From Mayamaea pseudoterrestris (taxonomy: Eukaryota): DNA of 64,000 nt. How positions within the stretch are numbered: the first letter of the stretch is position 1; each line of letters starts with the position of its first letter. The stretch lies in contig BROI01000002.1 in the NCBI GenBank assembly GCA_027923505.1, positions 1,922,001 through 1,986,000 on the forward strand, given 5' to 3'. Of the stretch, positions 1 through 29,784 are shown piece by piece. A program made the translations under genes and the position numbers. The notes beneath the pieces are model-generated. The model searched no databases. It saw only the letters and a list, made by a program, of their open reading frames with translations, and was not told the origin of the DNA.

Positions 1-1
1 A

Positions 2-274
2 GATGTGCTCAACAGCCAGGATGTCGGCCTTCGTCACAGGACAGTTCGGCAACTGATTGCTAGTAACGCTGCGCAGGTAATCCTTGAGGCTTGGCCGTCC
101 AATTTTGAGTTGCAGTTCCTCAGCTCTAACAGCGCGTAAATAGTCATCATTGGTGTAGTTAGTACGGTTATCGTCTACCGTAGTCAACATCGCCACTCCA
201 TCCTTGACATCGCTGCGCTTGCCCTTCGAAAAGCTCTCGCAAACATACAGCCCAGAGTCAGTCTCGACAAACTC
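2..274 (-). pseudogene. Pol continuation (pre-integrase region) in a shifted frame
   Basis: Open frame EFVETDSGLY...TVDDNRTNYT...LKIGRPSLKDY...NCPVTKADILAVEHI runs off the window, +1 relative to gag-PR. Confidence 0.75.
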
Positions 275-1844
275 GCTGCTTACCATCCGGCTTCTCCACA
301 ACGAACATTGGACGATCCACGCCGTGCATGAGATACTCCACGGTAAACTTCTTGCGGACTTGCGCCAAACTCAAAATGTTCGCCAGTCCCTGCGGATACC
401 ACCACACCGGACCATAGCCCTCCAGGTCGCCCATCATGTTCGTCCTTACTGTACCAGCGTTGCACTTGATCACCATCCACGTTGGCACCGGGCGAATGTT
501 CGTCAGCATCTTGGCGTTGCAGAACAGATCCACTGTCGACTGATTGTCCAAGAGCACAGCCTTCTTCGAGATGTTCACCTTCGGCGGCTGCGCGAACATG
601 TATCCGACCTCATCGTCGTCATCGCTTTCTTCCTCGCTACCCAGCGTGAAGTGCTGCGCCCCACTAGCCTCTGCAGCCGGCGCACTCTCCGTAGACTCCG
701 TTCTCGTAGGACAGTCTCGCTGCACATGACCAACCTGTTGACAGGTCCAGCATCTGGGAGGGTCACGCGCTGTACCAGTCGTGTGAAACGCCACGCCCTC
801 GTTCGTTGGCAACGTGGCTTCTCCATCCGCATGCTCACGACGCTGCATGATGTTGTATGCATCGTGGATCGTCAACGGGAAGTTGTCGTGCCCGTCGAGG
901 TAGCAGTTGCGCAAGTGCTTGCAATACCCAGCGTATTCGCCCGTTGCGCCACGCACGAAAAGCATCGCAAGCTCGAGCTCTTCGGCGGCCTTGATATCCT
1001 CCTTGTTCGCCTTGTTACGATTGTCATCCTTGGCAATGTTCAACGCCACAATCTCGTTGTGCATCGTGACGCCAACCGCCTTCGCCACGTCTGCCAGCGT
1101 GACCATGCTTTCGTAATATTTCTGCAGGCTTTCGCGCGCTCCTTGAGTACGTCCGAACAACTCAGCTTGAATGTCCACGACTTGATCCACAAGTTTGCAG
1201 CGCCCTTCGTACGTATGCGAGATCTCCTTGATAATCGCCAGCAACTTAATTCCGTCCGTGTCCTCCTCGGCGTCTCGGAACTTGGCGTGCGACTTGACAC
1301 GATCCTTCATACGCTCCGTGCATTGTCCATGCAACACGGCGTAGAGACCAGCGAGGAAGTCGGAGTATACACGCACGCGCTCGACATGCTCTTTCTTGTC
1401 GGCCTTGTATTCCTCGAGCATTATGGACCAGTCCGAGTCCGTCGTGTCGGCATCCTTCGTTGGACGTGCAGGCTCGTCAGGAATCTCCAGTTCCACGTTG
1501 CGCATGCCCTTGAGCAGCTCCTTGGTATATTTCTTGTAGGAGCGCCCGACGAAAGTGATGATCTCGTTCGTCGTACGGATGAATCCATCGGGATCGCGCG
1601 AACCGTTATAGTCGTAGATGAATCCAGCGAGCGTCGGCTCGCTTCCTTGGAAATTTCCACTCGGCGCACGACTCGGTCCGTTGAGTCTGTTACCATTGCC
1701 TTGATTCCCGGAACGATTCCCAGCACGATTCCCACGACGATAATGACGGTTGCGTCGGTTTCCTTCGCTTGCTGGCGGAGCGGGAGGTGCACCTCCACCG
1801 CTCGACGCCGCTCCTGTCGTCGGAGTATTGCTCGTCGAAGACAT
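258..1844 (-). CDS. Retrotransposon Gag-protease polyprotein (528 aa), ending at a frameshift
   Basis: R/N/G-rich N-terminus, gag-like core, CX2CX4HX4C knuckle, protease LLDNQST...ANILSL; TGA at 258-260. Confidence 0.9.
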   Translation of the reverse strand: MSSTSNTPTTGAASSGGGAPPAPPASEGNRRNRHYRRGNRAGNRSGNQGNGNRLNGPSRAPSGNFQGSEPTLAGFIYDYNGSRDPDGFIRTTNEIITFVGRSYKKYTKELLKGMRNVELEIPDEPARPTKDADTTDSDWSIMLEEYKADKKEHVERVRVYSDFLAGLYAVLHGQCTERMKDRVKSHAKFRDAEEDTDGIKLLAIIKEISHTYEGRCKLVDQVVDIQAELFGRTQGARESLQKYYESMVTLADVAKAVGVTMHNEIVALNIAKDDNRNKANKEDIKAAEELELAMLFVRGATGEYAGYCKHLRNCYLDGHDNFPLTIHDAYNIMQRREHADGEATLPTNEGVAFHTTGTARDPPRCWTCQQVGHVQRDCPTRTESTESAPAAEASGAQHFTLGSEEESDDDDEVGYMFAQPPKVNISKKAVLLDNQSTVDLFCNAKMLTNIRPVPTWMVIKCNAGTVRTNMMGDLEGYGPVWWYPQGLANILSLAQVRKKFTVEYLMHGVDRPMFVVEKPDGKQRVCRD

Positions 1845-1871
1845 GTCTTTTCACTCGCTTCTTGGAGAAAA

Positions 1872-2082
1872 TGTTGGATCTAGAATATATCTTGCGCGCC
1901 CTTGAAGCGACACTAATGATTAAGCAGAACAGAGTCAATAAAACCACTTTACTTATTTTCTCCAAGAAGTGATCGTCCTCGATCCACTCCTTCGGTTGCC
2001 GCTTACCGCGCTTACTTAAATGTGACCGTCTTCGTGACGTCACCGCTGCCGCTTCGGTTTGGGTTCTCATCCATGCTCAACA
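1872..2082 (-). repeat. 5' LTR (~211 bp)
   Basis: Minus strand starts TGTTGAG at 2082 (possibly TGTTGTTG at 2085) and ends TCCAACA at 1872, 28 nt before the gag ATG. The partner LTR is outside the window, so boundaries are inferred from the termini only. Confidence 0.7.
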
Positions 2083-2309
2083 ACATTGTTTAGCACGGAA
2101 CATCGCATAGGTTTTGACATTCGCGTTTCCTGTTCTGCAGAACATCTGCCCTCCCATACATATATTCCAGGCTACAAGTCAACTACAAATGAGTCAGCTG
2201 CACCAATCTCACCGCATACAAAACTCAAAGCATAGCCAGCATGTTTTATTTGGAAATGGACTACAGGGGTTACCGGTACGGTTGGAGGCTATTTTTACCA
2301 TTTTTCCTG

Positions 2310-3065
2310 CTATAATCGTCTTTGAGCGTCAATGAGCGCCCGCAACAACTCTGGTTCCTTGACATTGTTCAAATTAAATTCTCTAATCTTGCCAATTCCG
2401 CGAATTAACAAGGACGGTAAACGCGGAATGGCATAGTATGGGACATCCTTTGCAAGCTTGATACCAAAGTTGCCATTGAGGCCAACAGTCACTTCAAGAA
2501 TGTCATCCAAAGGGAATATGTGCTTGAATCCTGAAAGCCAAATCAAGTGATTTTAGACAAAGAACAAGTTGCCACTGACAGATCAGGTACTGATACTTGA
2601 CAGCAACATTTGCGACACACCAAAACATACATCGTATCTGCACTTACTGTATTCGTCAACGTGCACTAAGCCTTCCAGTGTGACTGCGGTGTGTGGGAGT
2701 GTCGTTCGACATTTAAAGATACCAAAGAGCAAATTGAATCCCATTAGCCAGGTGAGCCCAGGCAGCCACATGAGGCAAGCGACACTGCCTGCCAAAGCGA
2801 AACCTAGCAGACGTCTCCGTTGAAGATGCTTTTCCTGAGCGAAGTATCTCGCATCATGGTCAATCACTGCAATAATCTTATGTTCATCGCTGTCAAAGAA
2901 TAAGCGATCCTGCCAGTTGTGAGTTGCATTGGCAATGAGATCGCACGGACCAGTCTGCGAGTGAGATTGAGCATGAGGCGACAGCGACGACATGATTGAA
3001 TCCTTGTCGCCGCAGACATGGCCGTCCCGAACGTCAAGCCACGCGTTCGGAGCCGACGGATGCAT
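2310..3065 (-). CDS. Uncharacterised membrane protein, 2 exons (intron about 2531-2590/2596); paralog of 3562-4416
   Basis: Shares WQD.FFD...IIAV.DHDA, LPHTA.T.EGLVHV..YSK and IFPL.DI with its neighbour. The acceptor tttcag at 2531 joins the two ORFs in frame. Confidence 0.6.
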
Positions 3066-3561: not shown

Positions 3562-4416
3562 TTACCAATCACCTTTGTCAACGACAGTCACGGCTACCGG
3601 CTTGGCACATTCTGCATCTACAAAGCGCTGCTCCATTTGAAGTGCCTCGACAGCCTTGGAGAGCAGCAAAGAATGCATCGGAGCAGCCATTGTATATTCC
3701 AATGGACCCCCACACCAGCAAACGCAGCAAGCATGCTCCCGAGGCTGCTTGTAGTAGTCAACCCTTTTTGTCAGTGTCAAAACAAAGTTTTGATCAATAA
3801 GCGTCATGTTTACAATGTCGCTGAGCGGAAAAATGTAATTGGTCTCTGCAAGATGACGAAAATGGGTTAGTGTATTGTCGCGCAAGGTATCGAGACTAAA
3901 CGCTGCAGCAACATAGTGCACAATCTTACTGTATTTACTGACGTGTACTAATCCTTCCGCAGTGATGGCCGTATGAGGGAGTTTCGTTGCACATTCGAAA
4001 ATCGCTCGAACAGTGCAATAGAAAACTGCTGCAATCAGAGCGTTTTGAAGATCCTCACCCTCCCCTTGCAGTCCAAGGAGCCAGCTAAGAAACAGCGACA
4101 GCCAGTAAAATAAGCCGAACGCGGTTAATCCAATAGACACAAAGGAAACCTTTGTGTTTCGCTTCTCCAAAGCGAATTGTTTTGCATCATGATCAAAGAC
4201 GGCAATTATATCATGCGTCTCTTTCTCATCAAAGAATGTATCCTGCCATTCATGTTTGGCAAGCTCCGGAACGACCGCATGAGCTTGCGCCGCCACTGTT
4301 CCGCTAGTCGCCGTCCATGTGGGCTCCTTGCTTGAATCAGTATCCGCAATCATGCTAACTGCTAGACGAAGACTCTCAGTAGTAGTCGAGATGCTTGAAG
4401 CCAAATTGCTTTTCAA
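3562..4416 (-). CDS. Uncharacterised membrane protein (284 aa ORF; true ATG probably downstream)
   Basis: Long ORF with a hydrophobic segment; paralogous to 2310-3065. Confidence 0.65.
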   Translation of the reverse strand: MKSNLASSISTTTESLRLAVSMIADTDSSKEPTWTATSGTVAAQAHAVVPELAKHEWQDTFFDEKETHDIIAVFDHDAKQFALEKRNTKVSFVSIGLTAFGLFYWLSLFLSWLLGLQGEGEDLQNALIAAVFYCTVRAIFECATKLPHTAITAEGLVHVSKYSKIVHYVAAAFSLDTLRDNTLTHFRHLAETNYIFPLSDIVNMTLIDQNFVLTLTKRVDYYKQPREHACCVCWCGGPLEYTMAAPMHSLLLSKAVEALQMEQRFVDAECAKPVAVTVVDKGDW

Positions 4417-5089: not shown

Positions 5090-6748
5090 ATGACGACGGT
5101 TCAGTCCAAGCTCTTCTACTCGACCGAGGAACTCGTCGACGCGAGCAAGCAGCATATCAAGTTTCTCCGCGACTTGCACAAGCTTGGAGTCACGACGGCG
5201 GCCGTCCAACGCCACTCCCTCGTGCGCTACACGGACTTTTGGTTGCCCCTGGTCGCGAGTCGTCACTCCCAAGACGATGAGACGCCGCAAATTACCTTGA
5301 TTCCTCCGCCCGACGTTGCGTGGCTTTGGCATTGCCACCGCCTTGCTCCCAACCACTACGAGACGTACGTCAAAAAGACTTTTGACGGTAAGCTCCTTGA
5401 AGCGACTCCGCCGTTTCGCTTTCAAGACGTTGACGACGAGCATGATGGCACCCAGCGCGCCTGGAAGGAAGCGTATCCGGACGAGCCATTCCTACTCGAG
5501 CCGCTCAAGGAAGGTCACCCGACGACTGACCTTTGCTTTCCCGACCAGTACCTTGTCGGCAAGCATGACTTGATTGCGTCAGCCAAGAGCCAAGCCACCT
5601 TTCTTTGGCAAGTTTCCGGTCCGCACTTTAGCAGTGACGCCTTTCTCCACGAGGGCGTTCGTCGCTACGTTTTGTTTCTCCACGTGACGGACCACACTCT
5701 TCCACTGGTTCCTACCTATCAGATTGACCTGATGTGGCACACGCACATGCTGCTGTCCATTCACAAGTACAATGAAGATTGCGTTCGCATTCGAGGCGAC
5801 GTTTTTCACCACGACGACTCGTTGAACGATCGTTCGCTTGGATCGGACCTTGATCAATCATATCGCGCGACGATTGACCTTTGGCAGAAGAAGTACAAGG
5901 AGTTTTATCAGGTTGAAGGTAAGCACTAGTAGTGGAACGTTGCCCTCGCAGCCTACCATTGAATTTTTTCGTCTTTCATGCCACGACGGCTTCAACTTTG
6001 CATTTTGCTCTTTGCAGGAGGAATGTATCGAGGCGAACCACCGGCCTCGTACTGGAGTCGCTGCTGGGCGCCAACCTTGGAGGGAACCGAAGGAGCGGCC
6101 GTGCGTGCGCTTGCCCCGCCAGGGGCAACGGGAGCCACTTCGTCGGGCAAGAGTCCAAACGTTGTTGAATCCAAGGAACCCTATTTTATCAAAGTTTCGT
6201 ATGCGGTTGCTCGCACGGAAGCGCAAAAGGAAGGCTACGTTTTTGGACGCGGTAGTCAAGGTGTTGGGCACTATTCGCTCGACGAACGCAGCCCTCACAT
6301 TCGCTCAGCGTTCAGAATTATCCGTTTTCGTCTTAACAAGCGGATCCAATATAAGAAGGGCGAAATGTCCAACATTGTCTGCACGAGCGGTGGCTGCTGC
6401 GGCGGCACGATGAACGCGGCCGACCAGCGCAAATACGATCTTGTCGCCAAGGAAGTGGCTGACATGGAGTTGATGAAGTCCAACATTGAGAATGCCTTGC
6501 GGCACAAGGGAATTACGCCGGCCGCGGCATCGCTCAAGCGAGCAATGGACTCGACGAATCGGGATGCTCATTCAAGTGGAGCTTGGTATGCTAACTACTC
6601 GGTCGCTGCAGCATGCGGCGGTGGGGTTCCAGCTTGTGGAGGCTGCGGTGGTGGATGCGGCGGCGGTGGCGGAGGAGGATGCGGTGGCGGCGGAGGTGGA
6701 GGAGGATGCGGCGGTGGTGGCGGAGGCGGTGGCTGTGGAGGGTGTTGA
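5090..6748 (+). CDS. Glycine-rich domain protein (GRDP/DUF1399-like); intron 5919-6017
   Basis: Two PP.DV.W.WH.H.L.P / PT.QIDLMWHTH motifs. The GTAAGC...TTGCAG intron restores EGGMYRGEPP. Gly/Cys-rich tail. Confidence 0.85.
6613..6745 (+). repeat. Coding (GGN)n low-complexity tract encoding C(G)n repeats
   Basis: CGGCGGGCGGGGGGGCGGGGGGGGCGGGGGGGGCGGC (protein sequence). Confidence 0.9.
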
Positions 6749-7039
6749 GTATGGCCGGTTTGTCCAGTGTCGGCTTGCGTGTTCCGTACGTCATTTTGAT
6801 TGTTTATTTCTGCTGATTTGTTCGGTAGATGCTCTGTTAAATTTTACCATCAATTTTAACTGCGCGTCATTTAACGCACTCTACAATCAGTAGTAGGGTA
6901 AATTATGGAATTCGTCGAGGATGCATCAAACACTGCTGCAACGTCACATAGACAAAGAAACTTTACTCTACCGCCAGCTCTACCGGTAAAGGCGTAAGCA
7001 CTAAAAACATCGTAAAACAGACAAGTAGGATATGGACAA

Positions 7040-8692
7040 TCAACGCAAATCAAATTCGTCTTCGTCTTCAAGACTATCCATGTCATCTTCGTCGTCACTG
7101 CCCAGGTCAAGAGCATCCAGCTCGTCATTCAAAGCTCCCGGATCAAGAATAGCGCCTTGCGCCGCTTCGCCCTCGTAACCAGTCTTCATGTTCAAGACTT
7201 CATTAAGGCTAGGAGCGGATGGTTCAGCGGTTTCCTCTACGACGCTATCCTTTTTCGATCTGCTATTGCTTGACGACGACGACTTCTTCTTGTCCTTGGA
7301 CTTGTCCGACCGGGAAGCCGTCGTCTTGACGTCCCCCACCACCTTGCGCGCCACACCGGAAACACGCAACTGCTGCACCAGCGTCCGCATGGATAAATCC
7401 AGGTTCGCAAGCGCCGTCTTGTTGCTGCCCGCCGGTGTTCGCACCTCCTCCAGGTCGTCGGCATCGCGGCGCTTGATTGCTCGAAACAAGTCTTCGGCCA
7501 GTTTGCACTCTCGTGAATTCAAGTAGGCAGTCTTTTGGACGTGTCGCTTCAAAAATTCCTGCTCAGCGGCGATTGGGTCGCCCATGGCCAGTTGCAGAAT
7601 CGTCTCCACCACGTAGATGCGGCTCAACGTCAATGTGCTAATTCCATCCGCCTCCAAAATGGCCGCAGCGGCACCCGCGGCATACAAGGCTGACGCGTAC
7701 TCGCCGAATCCAACCAAGACGTAGATAAGGTCAATCAATGGCTCGTGCGAGTAGGCTCGATCAGACACCAGGTGCTCGCGGCACATGGCAAGTGTTTCTG
7801 GAGATGGCAGTTCGGCCGTCTCATCCGAGTCGGGATCAATAAAAGCGGAATGACCAGTTTGTCGGTAACGAACATGAGGGTTGAGTGGATCGGGCACGTG
7901 TGCCTCAATCGCTTCCTCCATACCGGCCAAGGACTCCTTGGAGAGCAACGTTCCTGATTGACCATGGTTCAGAGCTAACGCTGCCAGCACGAGCTGTTGC
8001 AACGGAGAGAATGGGATATATTTACAGTTAGCAAAGAATGGAAATGGTTGCAACAAATAATAGACAAGGGCATCACATACCGACTTGGCAGCCTTGGCTC
8101 GTTCATTCATTTGTACCCACGCTTCCGACGCCTTGCGGTGATAGTTGTAAGCCTCCTGTCGATGATCTTTAACGTCTCCATCGTCTTCCTCCAAGACCAA
8201 TTCGGCAGCCTTTGTATAATCCTGCGCCGCCGATGCCCACGCCTGAATCGCAAAGTTGCACTGACCCGAACTGACTCTACAAAATCGCTCCATCTTGTAA
8301 TCGCCAGCCTGCGCGTAGCAGTCAGCTGCTCGTTTGTAATACGTCGACGCGGCCACTGGATCGGGTTTGCTAAAGAAGGACGATTCCATTGCCTTGTTTG
8401 CCTTGGTCTTGTAGTCGGCCGCCTCCTTCAACTTGGTAGCGGCAGCTTCGCCGGATAGTGCAGGTCGAGCCTTTTTCGATTTGGCGTCCGTCGTTGTTCG
8501 ACGCGGCTGGTAGCCGCGAGCATTGGATGATGATGTTGCTTCCGTGGAATTAGCTGCTGCAACTGGACGACTGCTGCTGCTTGATGATGACTTCTTGCTG
8601 GCGTCGTCGCGATTCGACTTAGATCCGCTGCTACTTTTGGCACCTCCGCCAAAGAGAGCGTCCTTGCTTGCTTCCGTATTGTATTTCACCAT
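7040..8692 (-). CDS. Gamma-SNAP-like (NSF attachment) TPR protein; in-frame intron 7994-8080
   Basis: FFSKPDPVAASTYYKRAADCY resembles the gamma-SNAP N-terminus; helical repeats; acidic C-terminus ending EDEFDLR; GTATGT...CAACAG 87-nt intron. Confidence 0.65.
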   Translation of the reverse strand: MVKYNTEASKDALFGGGAKSSSGSKSNRDDASKKSSSSSSSRPVAAANSTEATSSSNARGYQPRRTTTDAKSKKARPALSGEAAATKLKEAADYKTKANKAMESSFFSKPDPVAASTYYKRAADCYAQAGDYKMERFCRVSSGQCNFAIQAWASAAQDYTKAAELVLEEDDGDVKDHRQEAYNYHRKASEAWVQMNERAKAAKSVCDALVYYLLQPFPFFANCKYIPFSPLQQLVLAALALNHGQSGTLLSKESLAGMEEAIEAHVPDPLNPHVRYRQTGHSAFIDPDSDETAELPSPETLAMCREHLVSDRAYSHEPLIDLIYVLVGFGEYASALYAAGAAAAILEADGISTLTLSRIYVVETILQLAMGDPIAAEQEFLKRHVQKTAYLNSRECKLAEDLFRAIKRRDADDLEEVRTPAGSNKTALANLDLSMRTLVQQLRVSGVARKVVGDVKTTASRSDKSKDKKKSSSSSNSRSKKDSVVEETAEPSAPSLNEVLNMKTGYEGEAAQGAILDPGALNDELDALDLGSDDEDDMDSLEDEDEFDLR

Positions 8693-8966
8693 TGTTCCTA
8701 TAGTTTAAGCGCACAATGAACGGCGGAATGAAAATGAATGTGACGGCGCGGTCACGCTCCGCCGTCATGGTGGATTGATGACCAAGTCGAAGCGGTTCTC
8801 GATTTGGCGCGACTGCAGCTTTTCAGTGCCGCTTGAATCGCCAATCCTCGCCGCAGCGCGGGGCGAGCCTTTTCCGTTTCTCGGTCAATTTCGACGGATG
8901 TTGCGACCTGTTCTAACAGCCGCATTGCTATTGCCAGCCTTGACATCGCTCGAGTAAGCAACTAAA

Positions 8967-11099
8967 ATGGTGGCTCATCACCGTAACAAGCGGGCGCGAC
9001 GAGTGCTGCCGTCGTCGAGTAAAGCTAATGTCGAGTTTCGTCCTGACGCCAATTGGAGGTCACATTTTGTGACGCTTGCGACGGCCGAAGAAGAGGTGCG
9101 TCGCTTATGCAGCTTTCGATACGACAAGCCTGACCATGGATGTGTCGGTGACCTTGATTCAGTTTTCAACCTGATTGTCAAACTACGGTCAATCCTAGTT
9201 GATGATTTGACATTCACGGACTACGGCGACGATTGCGGCGACACTGACGACCACAGAGACACTGATGAACTCAGACTGTCGTCGTTCCCTTTAAGTGGAG
9301 GAAACATTATACACAATACACAAGCCAAAGATTCTGCAATCAATATACATTACTCTGAAAGGTTCGTTGCAGCAATGGACGTCAAGCTCGTCAAGCAAAC
9401 ACATGGTTTCTTGATCCATCTGTTAAGTCACACTTCCTCACTGTACGCTACCTCAACTGAACAAGATCCCGACTCACTAAACTACAAGCAATCTACGCAT
9501 CATGTTTTGAAATGTATCATTCAGACATGCAAAACTTTGGACGTGCTGTATCGAAGTCGACTGATTCCAGACAATGTTAACAATGACAAACGCCGGCTGC
9601 TGTCAATAATGGAATGCCAGGAAGCCTTCATCACATGCGTGAGAATGCTGGAACTGTCAAGCTTGATAGAAGCTGCTGAAGGCTATTGCACGAATTGCGA
9701 GAGGGATGATGAGGCTCGTGACGATAGCGACATTTGCGACATTGAAATCAAGATAACGCGTCTATTTGTCAGTGCGAAAAGCTCCTGTCTCGTCGTTCTC
9801 AGCCAGCTGGGGCCATACATTCAATCAGCAAAGATGACTTCGTTCAAAACTATTGTTGACGCAGGCTGCCGAATGAATGGATTGTTGCAATGGACGAGAG
9901 GTCTACTAGAATTTTTCGTTAAGAGTCCTGATGTTCAAACGAGCCATATAGCCAGCATTGCTGTGGCTGCAATTATTGACGCCGACAAGTTGTCCAGCTT
10001 GAATTGCTGTCTACCGAAAACAAAAGAACCAATCTTCCAAACTTACTGTTCCTTGCTCATGCGGACGACTGCAGTAACAGAAAACGCTTTCGTGGCAATT
10101 ATCGATCATCTGGACAACGCAAGTCGCCAGTCTGATTTCGATAGTCATCTTTCAGCCGACTGCATGGAACTGTTATGCGCGAAATATTTGCAGTTCCAAA
10201 GTACGAGGGAGCAATCACATGATCGTATTATTCAGGCCATGCGGCGACTCTTTCAAAGAACAAGATACGAAACAAGACGCGTACTTCCAGCCCTAGAATG
10301 GTGCCGTCGAAACAATCTACTGGCACTTATCGTTGATGATCCAGTCGAGTGCACACCAAAGAGACTAATTGCTTGTTTGCTAAAATTCCTTATGGACCAG
10401 CAAACGTCAAAAGGTCTGCTCAACTCACTTGGCCTGATTCGGCTGCGTCATCAAGAGAGCACAGCAGCAAAAGTGCTTCTGAGCATCATGACCATGCTAT
10501 TTGATGATAGCGGTGTAAGAGCAAACACACATTGTAATTCCATTTTAGAGTCTATACCGGGCACGGACCTTGTGAGCATATGTACGGTGCTGATGGAGCA
10601 TAACAATCTGGCAGTGGTTTGCGTCGTTACAGTCTGGTTGTGTGACAAATTGGCAAACGCTTCCCACGAGCTCTTGATCCAAGTCCCAAACTCCTTGGCA
10701 AGCCTGGGAGCAGTGGCGCTAGACCTATTGAGGAACGATTGGCAATTGGAGCTTATCGGAACAATAGTTACGCTGTGGAACAAGCTCGCCGCGCGAATGG
10801 ACAGTACCGTCTCCGCTTTGCTGACACGACAGTCATCCGTCATCTCTGCCCTACTTAAAATATTATTACAGGACAGTGTACCAGACGCACCAAGACTTGC
10901 TGCAACTCACGTGCTGGTGCTGCTCTCAAATGACGTTTGCAATCGACGTATTTTGGCGTGCCACAATGGACTGCTCCCCGGCTTGATTCGAGCGACACGT
11001 GAGTTCCATTTCAAGTCAACTAGATTAAAAGGCTCACCCATTGAGTTGACGAGAGACTCCATCAAGATGTGTATCATGAATCTCGCTGTTGCACTTTAG
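8967..11099 (+). CDS. Uncharacterised 710 aa helical protein with a possibly ARM-like C-terminus
   Basis: Long uninterrupted Leu-rich ORF; C-terminal AATHVLVLLSNDVCNRRILA is armadillo-like. Confidence 0.65.
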   Translation: MVAHHRNKRARRVLPSSSKANVEFRPDANWRSHFVTLATAEEEVRRLCSFRYDKPDHGCVGDLDSVFNLIVKLRSILVDDLTFTDYGDDCGDTDDHRDTDELRLSSFPLSGGNIIHNTQAKDSAINIHYSERFVAAMDVKLVKQTHGFLIHLLSHTSSLYATSTEQDPDSLNYKQSTHHVLKCIIQTCKTLDVLYRSRLIPDNVNNDKRRLLSIMECQEAFITCVRMLELSSLIEAAEGYCTNCERDDEARDDSDICDIEIKITRLFVSAKSSCLVVLSQLGPYIQSAKMTSFKTIVDAGCRMNGLLQWTRGLLEFFVKSPDVQTSHIASIAVAAIIDADKLSSLNCCLPKTKEPIFQTYCSLLMRTTAVTENAFVAIIDHLDNASRQSDFDSHLSADCMELLCAKYLQFQSTREQSHDRIIQAMRRLFQRTRYETRRVLPALEWCRRNNLLALIVDDPVECTPKRLIACLLKFLMDQQTSKGLLNSLGLIRLRHQESTAAKVLLSIMTMLFDDSGVRANTHCNSILESIPGTDLVSICTVLMEHNNLAVVCVVTVWLCDKLANASHELLIQVPNSLASLGAVALDLLRNDWQLELIGTIVTLWNKLAARMDSTVSALLTRQSSVISALLKILLQDSVPDAPRLAATHVLVLLSNDVCNRRILACHNGLLPGLIRATREFHFKSTRLKGSPIELTRDSIKMCIMNLAVAL

Positions 11100-26599: not shown

Positions 26600-27946
26600 A
26601 TGAGAATAAAGCCTCGGAGGAAGTCTGATTCGCGAAAGAAACGCCTGCGACGAGTCGTCATCATAATTGCTGTCAGTCTTGTGTGGATTGTCGTCGCTGT
26701 TCAATGCGGCACCTATCTATACCACGACAATCACGGAAAAAGAATCATTGTGAATGATACCAGTCAGTCTTTGTTACAAGAGCCGAATAATTTACTCCGT
26801 TTGAAAGGGACAGTCCAGGACGTTGCCCGTCACGCGCAAGAGAAGCAACAGCTGCCAACGACAATGACGCCGTATGAGTCACCTGTGCTTATTTTTACCT
26901 GCAAGCGGGAACAATATCTGAAAGAAACTCTTGACGATATACTCAAGTACATTCCAACCGATTGCAGCATGGGATGTCCCGTCGTTATATCCCAGGACGG
27001 CAACGATCCAGCTGTTGCGACCGTCATTCGACAAGCACAGATAAACTTTCTACTAACGGCCAACATCCCCGTCATTCACTGGCAGCATTCCAGCTCACTT
27101 CGCGGAGCAGTCAACGCGTACCAAGCGCTAGCTGTGCACTATGGCTGGGCTCTGCGAAAAGTCTTTGGCGACGAAACACTTGCCTCCAATGTGCAAGTTC
27201 GCCCACGGCGCGTCGTTATTCTTGAGGAAGACTTGCACGTGGCACCTGATTTCTTCGCCTACTTTAAGGCGACAGCACCCATTCTAGATAATGATAAGAC
27301 TCTACTAGCAGTTTCAGCCTTTAATGACAACGGCTTCCACGGCAAGGTCAAGGATCCGACTCGGATACTGCGGAGCGACTTTTTCCCTGGCCTCGGCTGG
27401 ATGATGACCCGTCGACTATGGGAGAATGAGTTGGATAAAAAGTGGCCAAGCGGCTACTGGGATGACTGGCTACGACTAGCGGCGCAGCGCCAGGGACGAC
27501 ACGTTTTGCGACCCGAAGTGAGTCGGACCTATCACTTTGGTGTTCAGGGTGGGGCGTCAGGCAATCAGTTTGGTGGCTTACTCCAGCGTATTGAGTTGGA
27601 CACGGAGCCTGTAGACTGGGGCAGCCAAGACTTGAATTTTCTGTCATCAATAGAGGAGTACGATGGCCAATACTGGTCCCTAATTCGTGGCGCCAAGCAT
27701 GTCAACACCATTGCCGAGGGGATGGAAGCATGCAAATTAACCAATGTGCTCGTCGAGTATCAGGACATGCATGGCTTTCGCGAAATTGCTAGACACTTGG
27801 ATCTAATGCTTGATGAGAAGGACGGCATTCTTCGAACATCCTACAAGGGAGTGGTTGAAACTCGTCCCTATGGGAACAATCTACTCTTTTTGACACCACC
27901 ACTCGGCGAGCTACAAATATTGTTGCAGCATGTTGCTGATCATTAG
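26600..27946 (+). CDS. MGAT1: N-acetylglucosaminyltransferase I (GT13), copy A
   Basis: Type II TM anchor; ISQDG, HYGWAL, ILEEDL.VAPDFF, VSAFNDNG, RSDFFPGLGWM, WDDWLR, RPEVSRT.HFG. Confidence 0.9.
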   Translation: MRIKPRRKSDSRKKRLRRVVIIIAVSLVWIVVAVQCGTYLYHDNHGKRIIVNDTSQSLLQEPNNLLRLKGTVQDVARHAQEKQQLPTTMTPYESPVLIFTCKREQYLKETLDDILKYIPTDCSMGCPVVISQDGNDPAVATVIRQAQINFLLTANIPVIHWQHSSSLRGAVNAYQALAVHYGWALRKVFGDETLASNVQVRPRRVVILEEDLHVAPDFFAYFKATAPILDNDKTLLAVSAFNDNGFHGKVKDPTRILRSDFFPGLGWMMTRRLWENELDKKWPSGYWDDWLRLAAQRQGRHVLRPEVSRTYHFGVQGGASGNQFGGLLQRIELDTEPVDWGSQDLNFLSSIEEYDGQYWSLIRGAKHVNTIAEGMEACKLTNVLVEYQDMHGFREIARHLDLMLDEKDGILRTSYKGVVETRPYGNNLLFLTPPLGELQILLQHVADH

Positions 27947-28473: not shown

Positions 28474-29784
28474 ATGACGCGACGTAGCGTCGTCCTTGTG
28501 ACAGCCGTTTGCTTCGTCGTCACCGTCCAATTCTTCTTCCAAATTACTTCCAAAGAGCCAGCAATCGCCGAGAAAGTGACTGACTCAAGACGAGAAGAAA
28601 TATCCAACTTACTGCGTGTAAATTTGAAAGCTCGCAATGCTTCTCATTCTGCCCCAATCGAGCTTGCTTCGTCACCGCCTTCGCCATTGTCGACCATTGC
28701 TCTGGCACCCTATGAATCGCCCCTATTGCTTTTCACCTGCAGGCGACCCCATTACTTGAAGGAAACATTGGACTACATTATTAAGTACATTCCTCATGAC
28801 TGCAGTATGGGCTGTCCCTTCATCATTTCTCAGGATGGGGACGACGTTGAAGTTGCAAAAGTTATCCAAAAGGCACAAGTTCGATTCCAGGAGCAGGCAA
28901 ACGTTTCAGTCATTCACTGGCAACATTCTAAACCACAAGCGATTTCTAACGCCTATGAAGCACTTGCGATTCACTACGGATGGGCGCTGCAAAAGCTGTT
29001 TTCCAATGCATCGCTGGACGAACCCAATGATTCTCCGTTTCCAAGACGCGTTTTGATTCTAGAGGAAGACTTGCATGTGGCGCCCGACTTTTTTGACTAC
29101 TTTACCTCCATGGCTCCCATACTGGATCAGGATTCAAGCGTGTATGCAGTATCAGCCTTTAACGATAATGGTTTTCGCGGCAAAGTCAAGGACGTGACTC
29201 GCGTCCTACGCACTGACTTTTTCCCTGGTCTTGGTTGGATGATGACCCGACGGCTCTGGGAGGAGGAACTCCAACAAAAGTGGCCACGGATATATTGGGA
29301 TGGCTGGCTACGGCTTGGCGCCCAACGCAAGGGGCGGCATACTTTGAGACCAGAAGTGAGCCGAACGTTTCACTTTGGAACCATGGGCGGTGCGTCGGGA
29401 AACCAATATGGAGGATTGCTGCAACGCATTCAATTGAATTCGGAGCGCGTTGACTGGAGCAAACGCAATTTGACCAATTTGTCAATCACGGACGAGTATG
29501 ATCGTCAGTACTGGAAGTTAATCCGCAGTGCGAAACGAGTGCAAACACGTGAGGAAGCTTTGCAACATTGCAACGCTACGAACGTTCTAATCGAATACAA
29601 GGATTTGGAGGATTTTCGTATCGTTGCAAAAGATTTGGAGCTCATGGTTGATAACAAAGACGGTATTTTACGAACATCGTACAAGGGAGTAGTGGAAACG
29701 CGACCTTGTGGCAACAATTTACTGTTCTTGACGCCGCCGTTTGATGAGCTCCGCAGGTCCTTTCAACTTGTTGCCAACATGTAA
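28474..29784 (+). CDS. MGAT1: N-acetylglucosaminyltransferase I (GT13), copy B
   Basis: Same motifs as copy A, with WDGWLR in place of WDDWLR and a different TM/stem. Confidence 0.85.
   Translation: MTRRSVVLVTAVCFVVTVQFFFQITSKEPAIAEKVTDSRREEISNLLRVNLKARNASHSAPIELASSPPSPLSTIALAPYESPLLLFTCRRPHYLKETLDYIIKYIPHDCSMGCPFIISQDGDDVEVAKVIQKAQVRFQEQANVSVIHWQHSKPQAISNAYEALAIHYGWALQKLFSNASLDEPNDSPFPRRVLILEEDLHVAPDFFDYFTSMAPILDQDSSVYAVSAFNDNGFRGKVKDVTRVLRTDFFPGLGWMMTRRLWEEELQQKWPRIYWDGWLRLGAQRKGRHTLRPEVSRTFHFGTMGGASGNQYGGLLQRIQLNSERVDWSKRNLTNLSITDEYDRQYWKLIRSAKRVQTREEALQHCNATNVLIEYKDLEDFRIVAKDLELMVDNKDGILRTSYKGVVETRPCGNNLLFLTPPFDELRRSFQLVANM

Follow-up and report, generated by a model that had tools for sequence, protein, structure and literature searches.

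The window analysed here is a stretch of DNA of 64,000 nucleotides, and its minus strand contains the 5′ end of an LTR retrotransposon, the 3′ end of which lies beyond the window start (Table 1). On the sense strand of the element, the LTR runs from TGTTGAGC at 2082 to CCAACA at 1872, so that its termini are of the TG...CA type, and the order that follows is ...GATCCAACA, directly continued by TTTTCTCCAAGAAG, then 13 nt and the gag ATG at 1844. A CCHC zinc knuckle was recognized in the gag ORF (zf-CCHC, E 9.6e-06), while no second LTR or second copy of the element was found in the 64-kb window. In order to map the 5′ end of the LTR, contigs from four public runs, belonging to three studies, were compared with window positions 1-2600. 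Other copies diverged from the window behind 2082 (X2 and X5, with a common flank) or behind 2084 (X6 copies), and an X4 contig of 4945 nt led on from window position 1, over another 2931 letters, directly into 2082. Since the contigs diverge behind 2082-2084 and the X4 contig joins the interior to 2082, the LTR starts at 2082. LTR and interior together comprise 5013 nt, and thus the whole element should measure about 5.2 kb.

Table 1. Features of the retrotransposon 5′ end on the minus strand of the window.
Feature	Position	Strand	Remarks
5′ LTR	1872..2082	-	211 nt; TGTTG...CAACA
Predicted U3 (promoter part of the LTR)	1971..2082	-	from the predicted start at A1970
Initiator-like motif TCACTTC, with predicted start A1970	1966..1972	-	TCA recurs in relatives
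5′ arm, predicted self-primer, sense CTTCTTGGAGAAAAT	1955..1969	-	exact complement of 1858-1872
U5 hairpin	1894..1913	-	minimum-energy fold and conserved prediction
Putative primer-binding site, 14 nt, sense TTTTCTCCAAGAAG, no TGG	1858..1871	-	directly after the LTR
gag ORF and protease region, 528 aa	258..1844	-	ends at a frame break in the window copy
Second-frame continuation (...LPNCPVTKADIL...)	2..301	-	before and into the integrase N-terminal part; runs off the window

The coding part of the window copy contains a frame break. All four runs (4/4) carried a CT insertion behind 271, leaving a 2-nt gap in the window copy at the very position where the gag-PR frame ends and the next frame starts, and the relatives described below have one continuous ORF there. 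Motifs of the frame 301..2 were also found upstream of the integrase core in the alignment of those relatives. Base differences between the four runs and the window were located at 69, 109, 120 and 121. The frame break may reflect an error of the assembly near 271, or this copy may not be autonomous. Additionally, in an X6 contig, the host flank of the window (2083-2234) was joined to sequence that does not belong to the element, and this contig could represent an empty-site allele. Summed contig depth in X6, which is not a copy number, was about 1080 for the interior, 6000-8800 for the LTR and 30-98 for the host flank, and this profile hints at many copies and solo LTRs.

Homologues of the gag ORF were found among metagenome proteins only, with 9 matches at 27-50% identity. 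A scan of metagenome contigs then yielded 219 relatives, and the best-scoring 80 of these 219, representing 78 loci, were used. As the window copy stops before the RT, its link to copia elements runs through the homology of its gag, PR and IN N-terminal regions to these relatives. RVT_2, the copia-type RT family of Pfam, was present in 5/5 full-length relatives, with 42.7-76.2 bits against a cut-off of 31.6; these relatives were single ORFs of 1617-1741 aa, and RVT_2 was located at about residues 1120-1420. For the region between PR and RT, Pfam gave no integrase family at E up to 1 and a sequence search of the PDB returned no match, while the alignment of the relatives contained invariant D...D...E columns. 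An AlphaFold (AF2) model of L052 residues 547-1047 had a mean pLDDT of 54.5, with core blocks at 72-89, and when this model was compared with the PDB by Foldseek, the top matches were all retroviral integrases (E 3e-09, probability 1.00). By this model, the relatives have an integrase fold between protease and RT. The N-terminal region of the integrase reads NCPVT...LKGKT, with no recognizable HHCC pattern.

The resulting order, gag-PR-IN-RT, is that of Ty1/copia, and the element is thus not a Tf1/sushi (gypsy) element; membership in that Ty3/gypsy group was rejected on account of the RVT_2 RT and of an integrase upstream of the RT, instead of the order PR-RT-RH-IN. The preliminary description, made from the window alone, had called the element copia-type, and the presence of RVT_2 downstream of an integrase fold in all five full-length relatives agrees with it. 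A DIRS-like inverted-repeat element was also considered and rejected, as the terminal repeats of the present family are direct and its enzyme has an integrase fold. None of the copia-type gag families of Pfam matched the window gag. The Atlas clusters nearest to it had 2-3 labelled members, all of them Bacillariophyta, which is only a hint of a diatom affinity. A profile of the gag-PR-IN N-terminal region matched 29,930 representative clusters at E ≤0.001, 14,743 at 1e-10 and 3,282 at 1e-30, and some of these matches may reflect copia proteases or integrases more generally.

The LTR end of the window copy is flanked by one arm of an inverted repeat, the other arm of which is located inside the LTR. 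The 15 nt at 1858-1872 (CTTCTTGGAGAAAAT on the plus strand, ATTTTCTCCAAGAAG on the sense strand of the element) are the exact reverse complement of 1955-1969. This 15-mer occurs at these two places only in the 64-kb window, and two 15-mer matches were seen in 0/100 dinucleotide shuffles; with one mismatch allowed, the repeat extends to 18 nt (1855-1872 and 1955-1972). The last A of the CAACA of the LTR is base 1872, and therefore the 15-nt duplex consists of a 14-nt primer site (1871-1858) and the last A of the LTR. The junction reads CAACA followed by TTTTCTCC..., with no TGG of a tRNA-complementary site, and no tRNA genes were found within the 64-kb window. Three relatives, L052, L038 and L021, contain true junctions between LTR and flank, in which flanking DNA comes right after the ...CAACA of the 3′ LTR, and their 5′ copy has the complementary arm instead of the flank at this point. 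The 3′ end of the window LTR was placed at 1872 on the basis of these junctions. The 3′ LTR of L021 begins with TGTTGAGC, as does the window LTR. The exact 15-nt complement, the coincidence of the duplex end with the LTR boundary and the lack of TGG after the LTR had all been put forward in the preliminary description, and each of them stood: the pair is unique in the window, the boundary is borne out at its 3′ end by the three junctions and at its other end by the contigs that bound the LTR at 2082, and TGG is likewise absent from the primer sites of the relatives.

In order to see how far this layout recurs, we used a set of 33 5′ regions, namely those of 32 loci in which the gag N-terminus was present and uncut by a contig end, together with that of the window. 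An exact inverted repeat of 13-19 nt in the same layout was present in 29 of the 33 (28 loci and the window). In all 29, one arm stands right after the LTR end ...(T/C)CAAC(A), and the other arm stands after or at a CTCA/TCA located 33-205 nt upstream, or in the 3′ LTR if the 5′ LTR is cut off. The loops between the arms were mostly about 95-130 nt long within this range of 33-205 nt. Among the four exceptions, L006 had no repeat, L041 had a decayed one (13/15), and the upstream sequence of L008 and L020 was too short. The same layout was observed in L021, which lies outside the 33-region set, with compensatory differences against its close relative L038. A chance origin of the repeat was ruled out: besides the shuffles of the window mentioned above, a repeat length of at least 13 nt was reached by 21 of 24 related upstream regions but by only 6 of 2400 dinucleotide-shuffled sequences (maximum 14) and by 0/100 coding windows of equal size from the same loci (maximum 11).

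The 29 regions contain 21 distinct arm sequences. TGG is not found at the start of any of the 21 primer sites, which vary from element to element, so that a conserved host tRNA or tRNA half does not explain them. Most Ty1/copia elements are primed by tRNA-Met or half-tRNAs (PMC6317226), and a host tRNA, tRNA half or small RNA could in principle act here as in copia, Ty5 or Osser-type elements, in which case the match to the LTR would be incidental. Such a primer should, however, be accompanied by a conserved site that does not covary with the LTR, whereas the 21 different sites each match their own LTR perfectly, and we regard a host-derived primer as scarcely credible.

Several minor features of the relatives were also noted. 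In many loci, the 5′ arm is followed at once by the sequence CT(A/G)GTT, with the variants TTGGTT, CTGATT and CTAATT, and the window has AAGTAA at this place; the motif may be part of a cleavage context or of R. The arms of the metagenome relatives are almost pure A/T, with about 50% A+T in the U3 upstream of them, and the window arms are richer in G+C. One might speculate that a weak A/T duplex balances the needs of priming against those of ribosomes that scan the capped leader. Contigs of the relatives were often arranged in tandem or permuted circularly, the period being 5.2-5.4 kb (L030, L076, L053, L010, L050 and others); for example, positions 1-4551 of L030 equal 5234-9784, and positions 1-4475 of L076 equal 5407-9881. 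Several contigs had terminal overlaps of 106-127 nt at 100%. These forms could be due to assembly collapse at the LTRs, to tandem arrays or to circular forms.

Covariation between the two arms was examined in two alignments of 5′ regions picked for comparable loop length, one with 12 re-cut regions (window and 11 loci; A3) and one with the 8 closest regions (A4). They replaced a first MAFFT alignment of 14 5′ regions, which had misplaced the 5′ arm of the window, L063 and L076. RNAalifold predicted on A3 a single long-range helix of 15 bp, both sides of which had changed in at least one sequence at 13/15 pairs. All 178 helix cells (178/178) were paired, compared to a shuffle mean of 62.1%, and 0/500 shuffles equalled the observed value; when the partner was slid by one column, 46% were paired. 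The helix contained one G-U among its 178 cells and no internal mismatches. Compensatory changes between primer site and LTR in related elements, for which the preliminary description had proposed a test, are thus present in the alignment.

The extent of the helix was determined by indexing the pairs from the terminal A of the LTR (index 0) across the 21 distinct arm sequences. Pairing was absent at index -1 (0/21), was present at index 0 in 16/21, and was of Watson-Crick type in 21/21 at each index from +1 to +12 and in 20/21 at +13. Index +14 had 20 Watson-Crick pairs and one G-U pair, index +15 was paired in 9/21, and pairing beyond that looks random. The A of CTCA/TCA lies at pair index 15 in 19 of the 21 elements. 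The geometry is therefore constant, with a primer site of 14 nt and a partner that ends exactly at the conserved motif.

The minimum-energy RNA fold of 1970..1845 in the window contains the 15-bp duplex and, inside the fold-back, a hairpin at 1913..1894. Its energy is -31.8 kcal/mol (z -1.88), and 8 of 200 shuffles folded as well, so that the fold energy alone is weak evidence. The stem of this U5 hairpin is composed of the pairs G-C, U-G and G-C, a bulged U and then five pairs. On the 8 closest 5′ regions, RNAalifold also predicted a conserved U5 hairpin (columns 73-81/87-94) with compensatory changes. The U5 stem-loop is thus present inside the fold-back both in the window fold and in these 8 regions, and it is out of register in 4 more distant A3 loci. 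Unlike the long-range helix, the U5 hairpin contains G-U pairs and mismatches.

These data bear on the possibility that the helix is a structural RNA element, concerned with packaging, dimerisation or, by masking the capped 5′ end and the leader, the control of gag translation, and that some other primer is used. Covariation alone proves pairing and not priming, the helix closes the whole leader and encloses the conserved U5 hairpin, and in most loci the distance from the end of its 3′ arm to the gag AUG is 7-25 nt, all of which would suit a structural role. However, no alternative primer site is visible, and the paired segment stands exactly where a primer-binding site is expected, beginning with the last base of the LTR and keeping a constant length of 14-15 nt from the LTR end, as fits a primer. 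A helix with one G-U pair in 178 cells and no mismatches is also more perfect than a structure needs, in contrast to the U5 hairpin. For these reasons we consider a purely structural role unlikely.

Where the duplex has its 5′ edge, a motif is found that resembles an initiator. Of 24 distinct contexts, 23 had TCA at this edge and 22 had CTCA, and relative to the first paired base the A of the motif had an offset of -1 or 0 in 21 of the 24. In oomycetes, the INR element has the consensus YCAYTYY, with the start at or near the A, and the promoters described with it are TATA-less (PMC3599244). TCACTTC of the window fits both the general initiator pattern and this INR, which is a consensus from oomycetes. 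In 19 upstream regions scanned, that of the window included, there was no TATA-like motif near -30; 18 had no motif at all and one had a motif at -56. The absence of TATA near -30 agrees with the TATA-less promoters of oomycetes and is no proof of the start. Judged from the motif and the edge of the pairing, transcription probably starts at A1970, and 1955..1969 would then be bases +2 to +16 of the RNA. That selection for pairing stops at the A of the motif is expected if the RNA contains nothing upstream of that A. Self-priming in cis needs a start at or upstream of 1969, and the preliminary description, which had asked for a start near 1969, was slightly too strict.

From the repeat, its position and conservation, and the copia architecture of the family, we infer an RNA start, a cleavage, a priming step and a rewriting of the primer site, as follows. 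Transcription would start at the A of the initiator-like CTCA/TCA in the LTR (A1970 in the window). The 14-15 bases that follow this A (1969-1955) would fold back across an R-U5 of about 82 nt, which includes the small conserved hairpin, and pair with the 14-nt primer site at 1871-1858 and with the last A of the LTR at 1872. The RNase H of the element would then cut the RNA where the paired 5′ segment has its 3′ end, and the freed 3′-OH, lying opposite the junction of U5 and primer site, would be extended into minus-strand strong-stop DNA. As the terminal A of the LTR is paired in 16/21 elements, more than one position of the cut relative to the LTR end, and more than one way of regenerating this end, would be conceivable. 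During synthesis of plus-strand DNA, the attached primer would be copied, whereby the primer site would be rewritten from LTR sequence.

In retroviruses, the tRNA primer is copied into the primer site in a comparable step. Here, rewriting of the primer site would keep both arms perfectly complementary. The near absence of G-U pairs and mismatches in the long-range helix, as opposed to the tolerant U5 hairpin, suggests that the helix is kept perfect by primer copying, and not only by selection on structure. Taken together, we consider Tf1-like self-priming by intramolecular fold-back in a Ty1/copia-type element of about 5.2 kb likely. The preliminary description had proposed a copia element with candidate tRNA-independent self-priming, and the covariation, the LTR boundary, the lack of TGG and the copia-type RT support this reading.

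A variant of self-priming would do without the intramolecular 5′ fold-back, the primer coming in trans from a second co-packaged RNA or from the 3′ copy of R. The 5′ arm lies in R and is thus expected at both ends of the genomic RNA, and priming in cis and in trans are indistinguishable by sequence analysis. The loops are nevertheless conserved at a moderate length and contain the U5 hairpin, which suggests an intramolecular fold, as in Tf1 (PMC7175516), and we find priming in trans or from the 3′ R distinctly unlikely. In what follows, intramolecular self-priming is compared with known systems.

Experimental evidence for self-priming exists for the Tf1/sushi group of gypsy elements, and self-priming has been deduced for a few further lineages. 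In Tf1, the RNA's first 11 bases pair with the primer-binding site, and the cut by RNase H falls between bases 11 and 12 (PMC7175516; PMC4600332). The family described here resembles Tf1/Tf2 of Schizosaccharomyces pombe and the Tf1/sushi group in that it has no tRNA-type primer-binding site, in the complementarity between the site after the LTR and the predicted 5′ end of its own RNA, in the U5 stem-loop inside the fold-back and in the single gag-pol ORF of most relatives (PMC7175516; PMC4600332). It differs from Tf1/Tf2 in the RVT_2 RT and the integrase upstream of RT (Ty1/copia order) found in the relatives, and in its duplex, which has 14-15 bp and up to 19, compared to 11 in Tf1 (PMC7175516; PMC4600332). 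The 5′ edge of the duplex here, unlike that of Tf1/Tf2, coincides with the conserved initiator-like CTCA, and cleavage and priming here are predictions.

Among Ty1/copia elements, self-priming has been predicted in silico for the plant TAR lineage, for 89% of 203 elements, and had been proposed earlier for its members Houba and Osr-1 (PMC6317226). TAR shares with the present family the Ty1/copia type, a single GAG-PROT-INT-RT-RH ORF and predicted self-priming (PMC6317226). TAR elements, however, have land-plant hosts, whereas the present family is known from a window with a diatom-near gag and from environmental metagenomes, has no Pfam match to a copia-type gag and carries an integrase unseen by Pfam. 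GalEa, a fungal Ty1/copia element, likewise has no tRNA-type primer-binding site and has a conserved paired structure at the position of that site (PMC5445492). Its 'Conserved Hairpin Site' is a local palindrome or hairpin, for which the authors found no complementary LTR segment (PMC5445492), whereas the partner in our family lies 33-205 nt upstream, inside the LTR.

The CoDi elements of diatoms (Maumus et al. 2009) are copia-type, as is the element in the window, whose gag is nearest to the Atlas clusters labelled Bacillariophyta. In the main text of the CoDi paper, the terms primer binding, tRNA, priming, hairpin and transcription start do not occur (PMC2806351), and full-text searches outside subscription papers gave no description of self-priming in copia elements of diatoms or related protists. 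The novelty suggested in the preliminary description, which concerned diatom copia elements, is narrowed by the self-priming already predicted for copia elements of the plant TAR lineage (PMC6317226).

It is possible, if doubtful at present, that diatoms and other microbial eukaryotes harbour a very large clade of copia elements which is obligatorily primed by 14-15 nt of its own RNA, taken from a start that is defined by an initiator, with the site being rewritten in each cycle. Should this clade branch deep in Pseudoviridae, apart from both plant TAR and Tf1/sushi, then self-priming either would go back to the ancestor of LTR retrotransposons or would have arisen repeatedly, and such a branching would be relevant to the suggestion that priming by a hairpin was used by the first LTR elements (PMC3601003). 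The comparative signature of these copia elements is unusually clean, with perfect pairing, 21 sequence solutions and a fixed geometry. It also provides a rule for annotation: CTCA, followed by 14-15 nt that match the sequence after ...CAACA, would mark the primer site and the likely RNA start. Searches for tRNA-based primer-binding sites would fail on such elements, and the self-priming layout explains why. The family may furthermore serve as a second, distant system in which to study the recognition of an RNA duplex by RNase H and the homogenisation of a site by primer copying. Since copia elements are major and stress-responsive components of diatom genomes (PMC2806351), the layout would give a concrete handle on copia replication there.

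Two further kinds of repeats were observed elsewhere in the window. Diverged direct repeats with 73-74% identity were found inside neighbouring host ORFs, at 2643-2720 and 3925-4002 and at 27203-27295 and 29041-29133, and these pairs look like tandem paralogous genes. The region 6387-6743 is a G+C-rich degenerate repeat with GCGGTGGCGGAGG-like units in five overlapping copies, and is probably a coding repeat, rich in Gly or in Ala/Pro depending on the strand.
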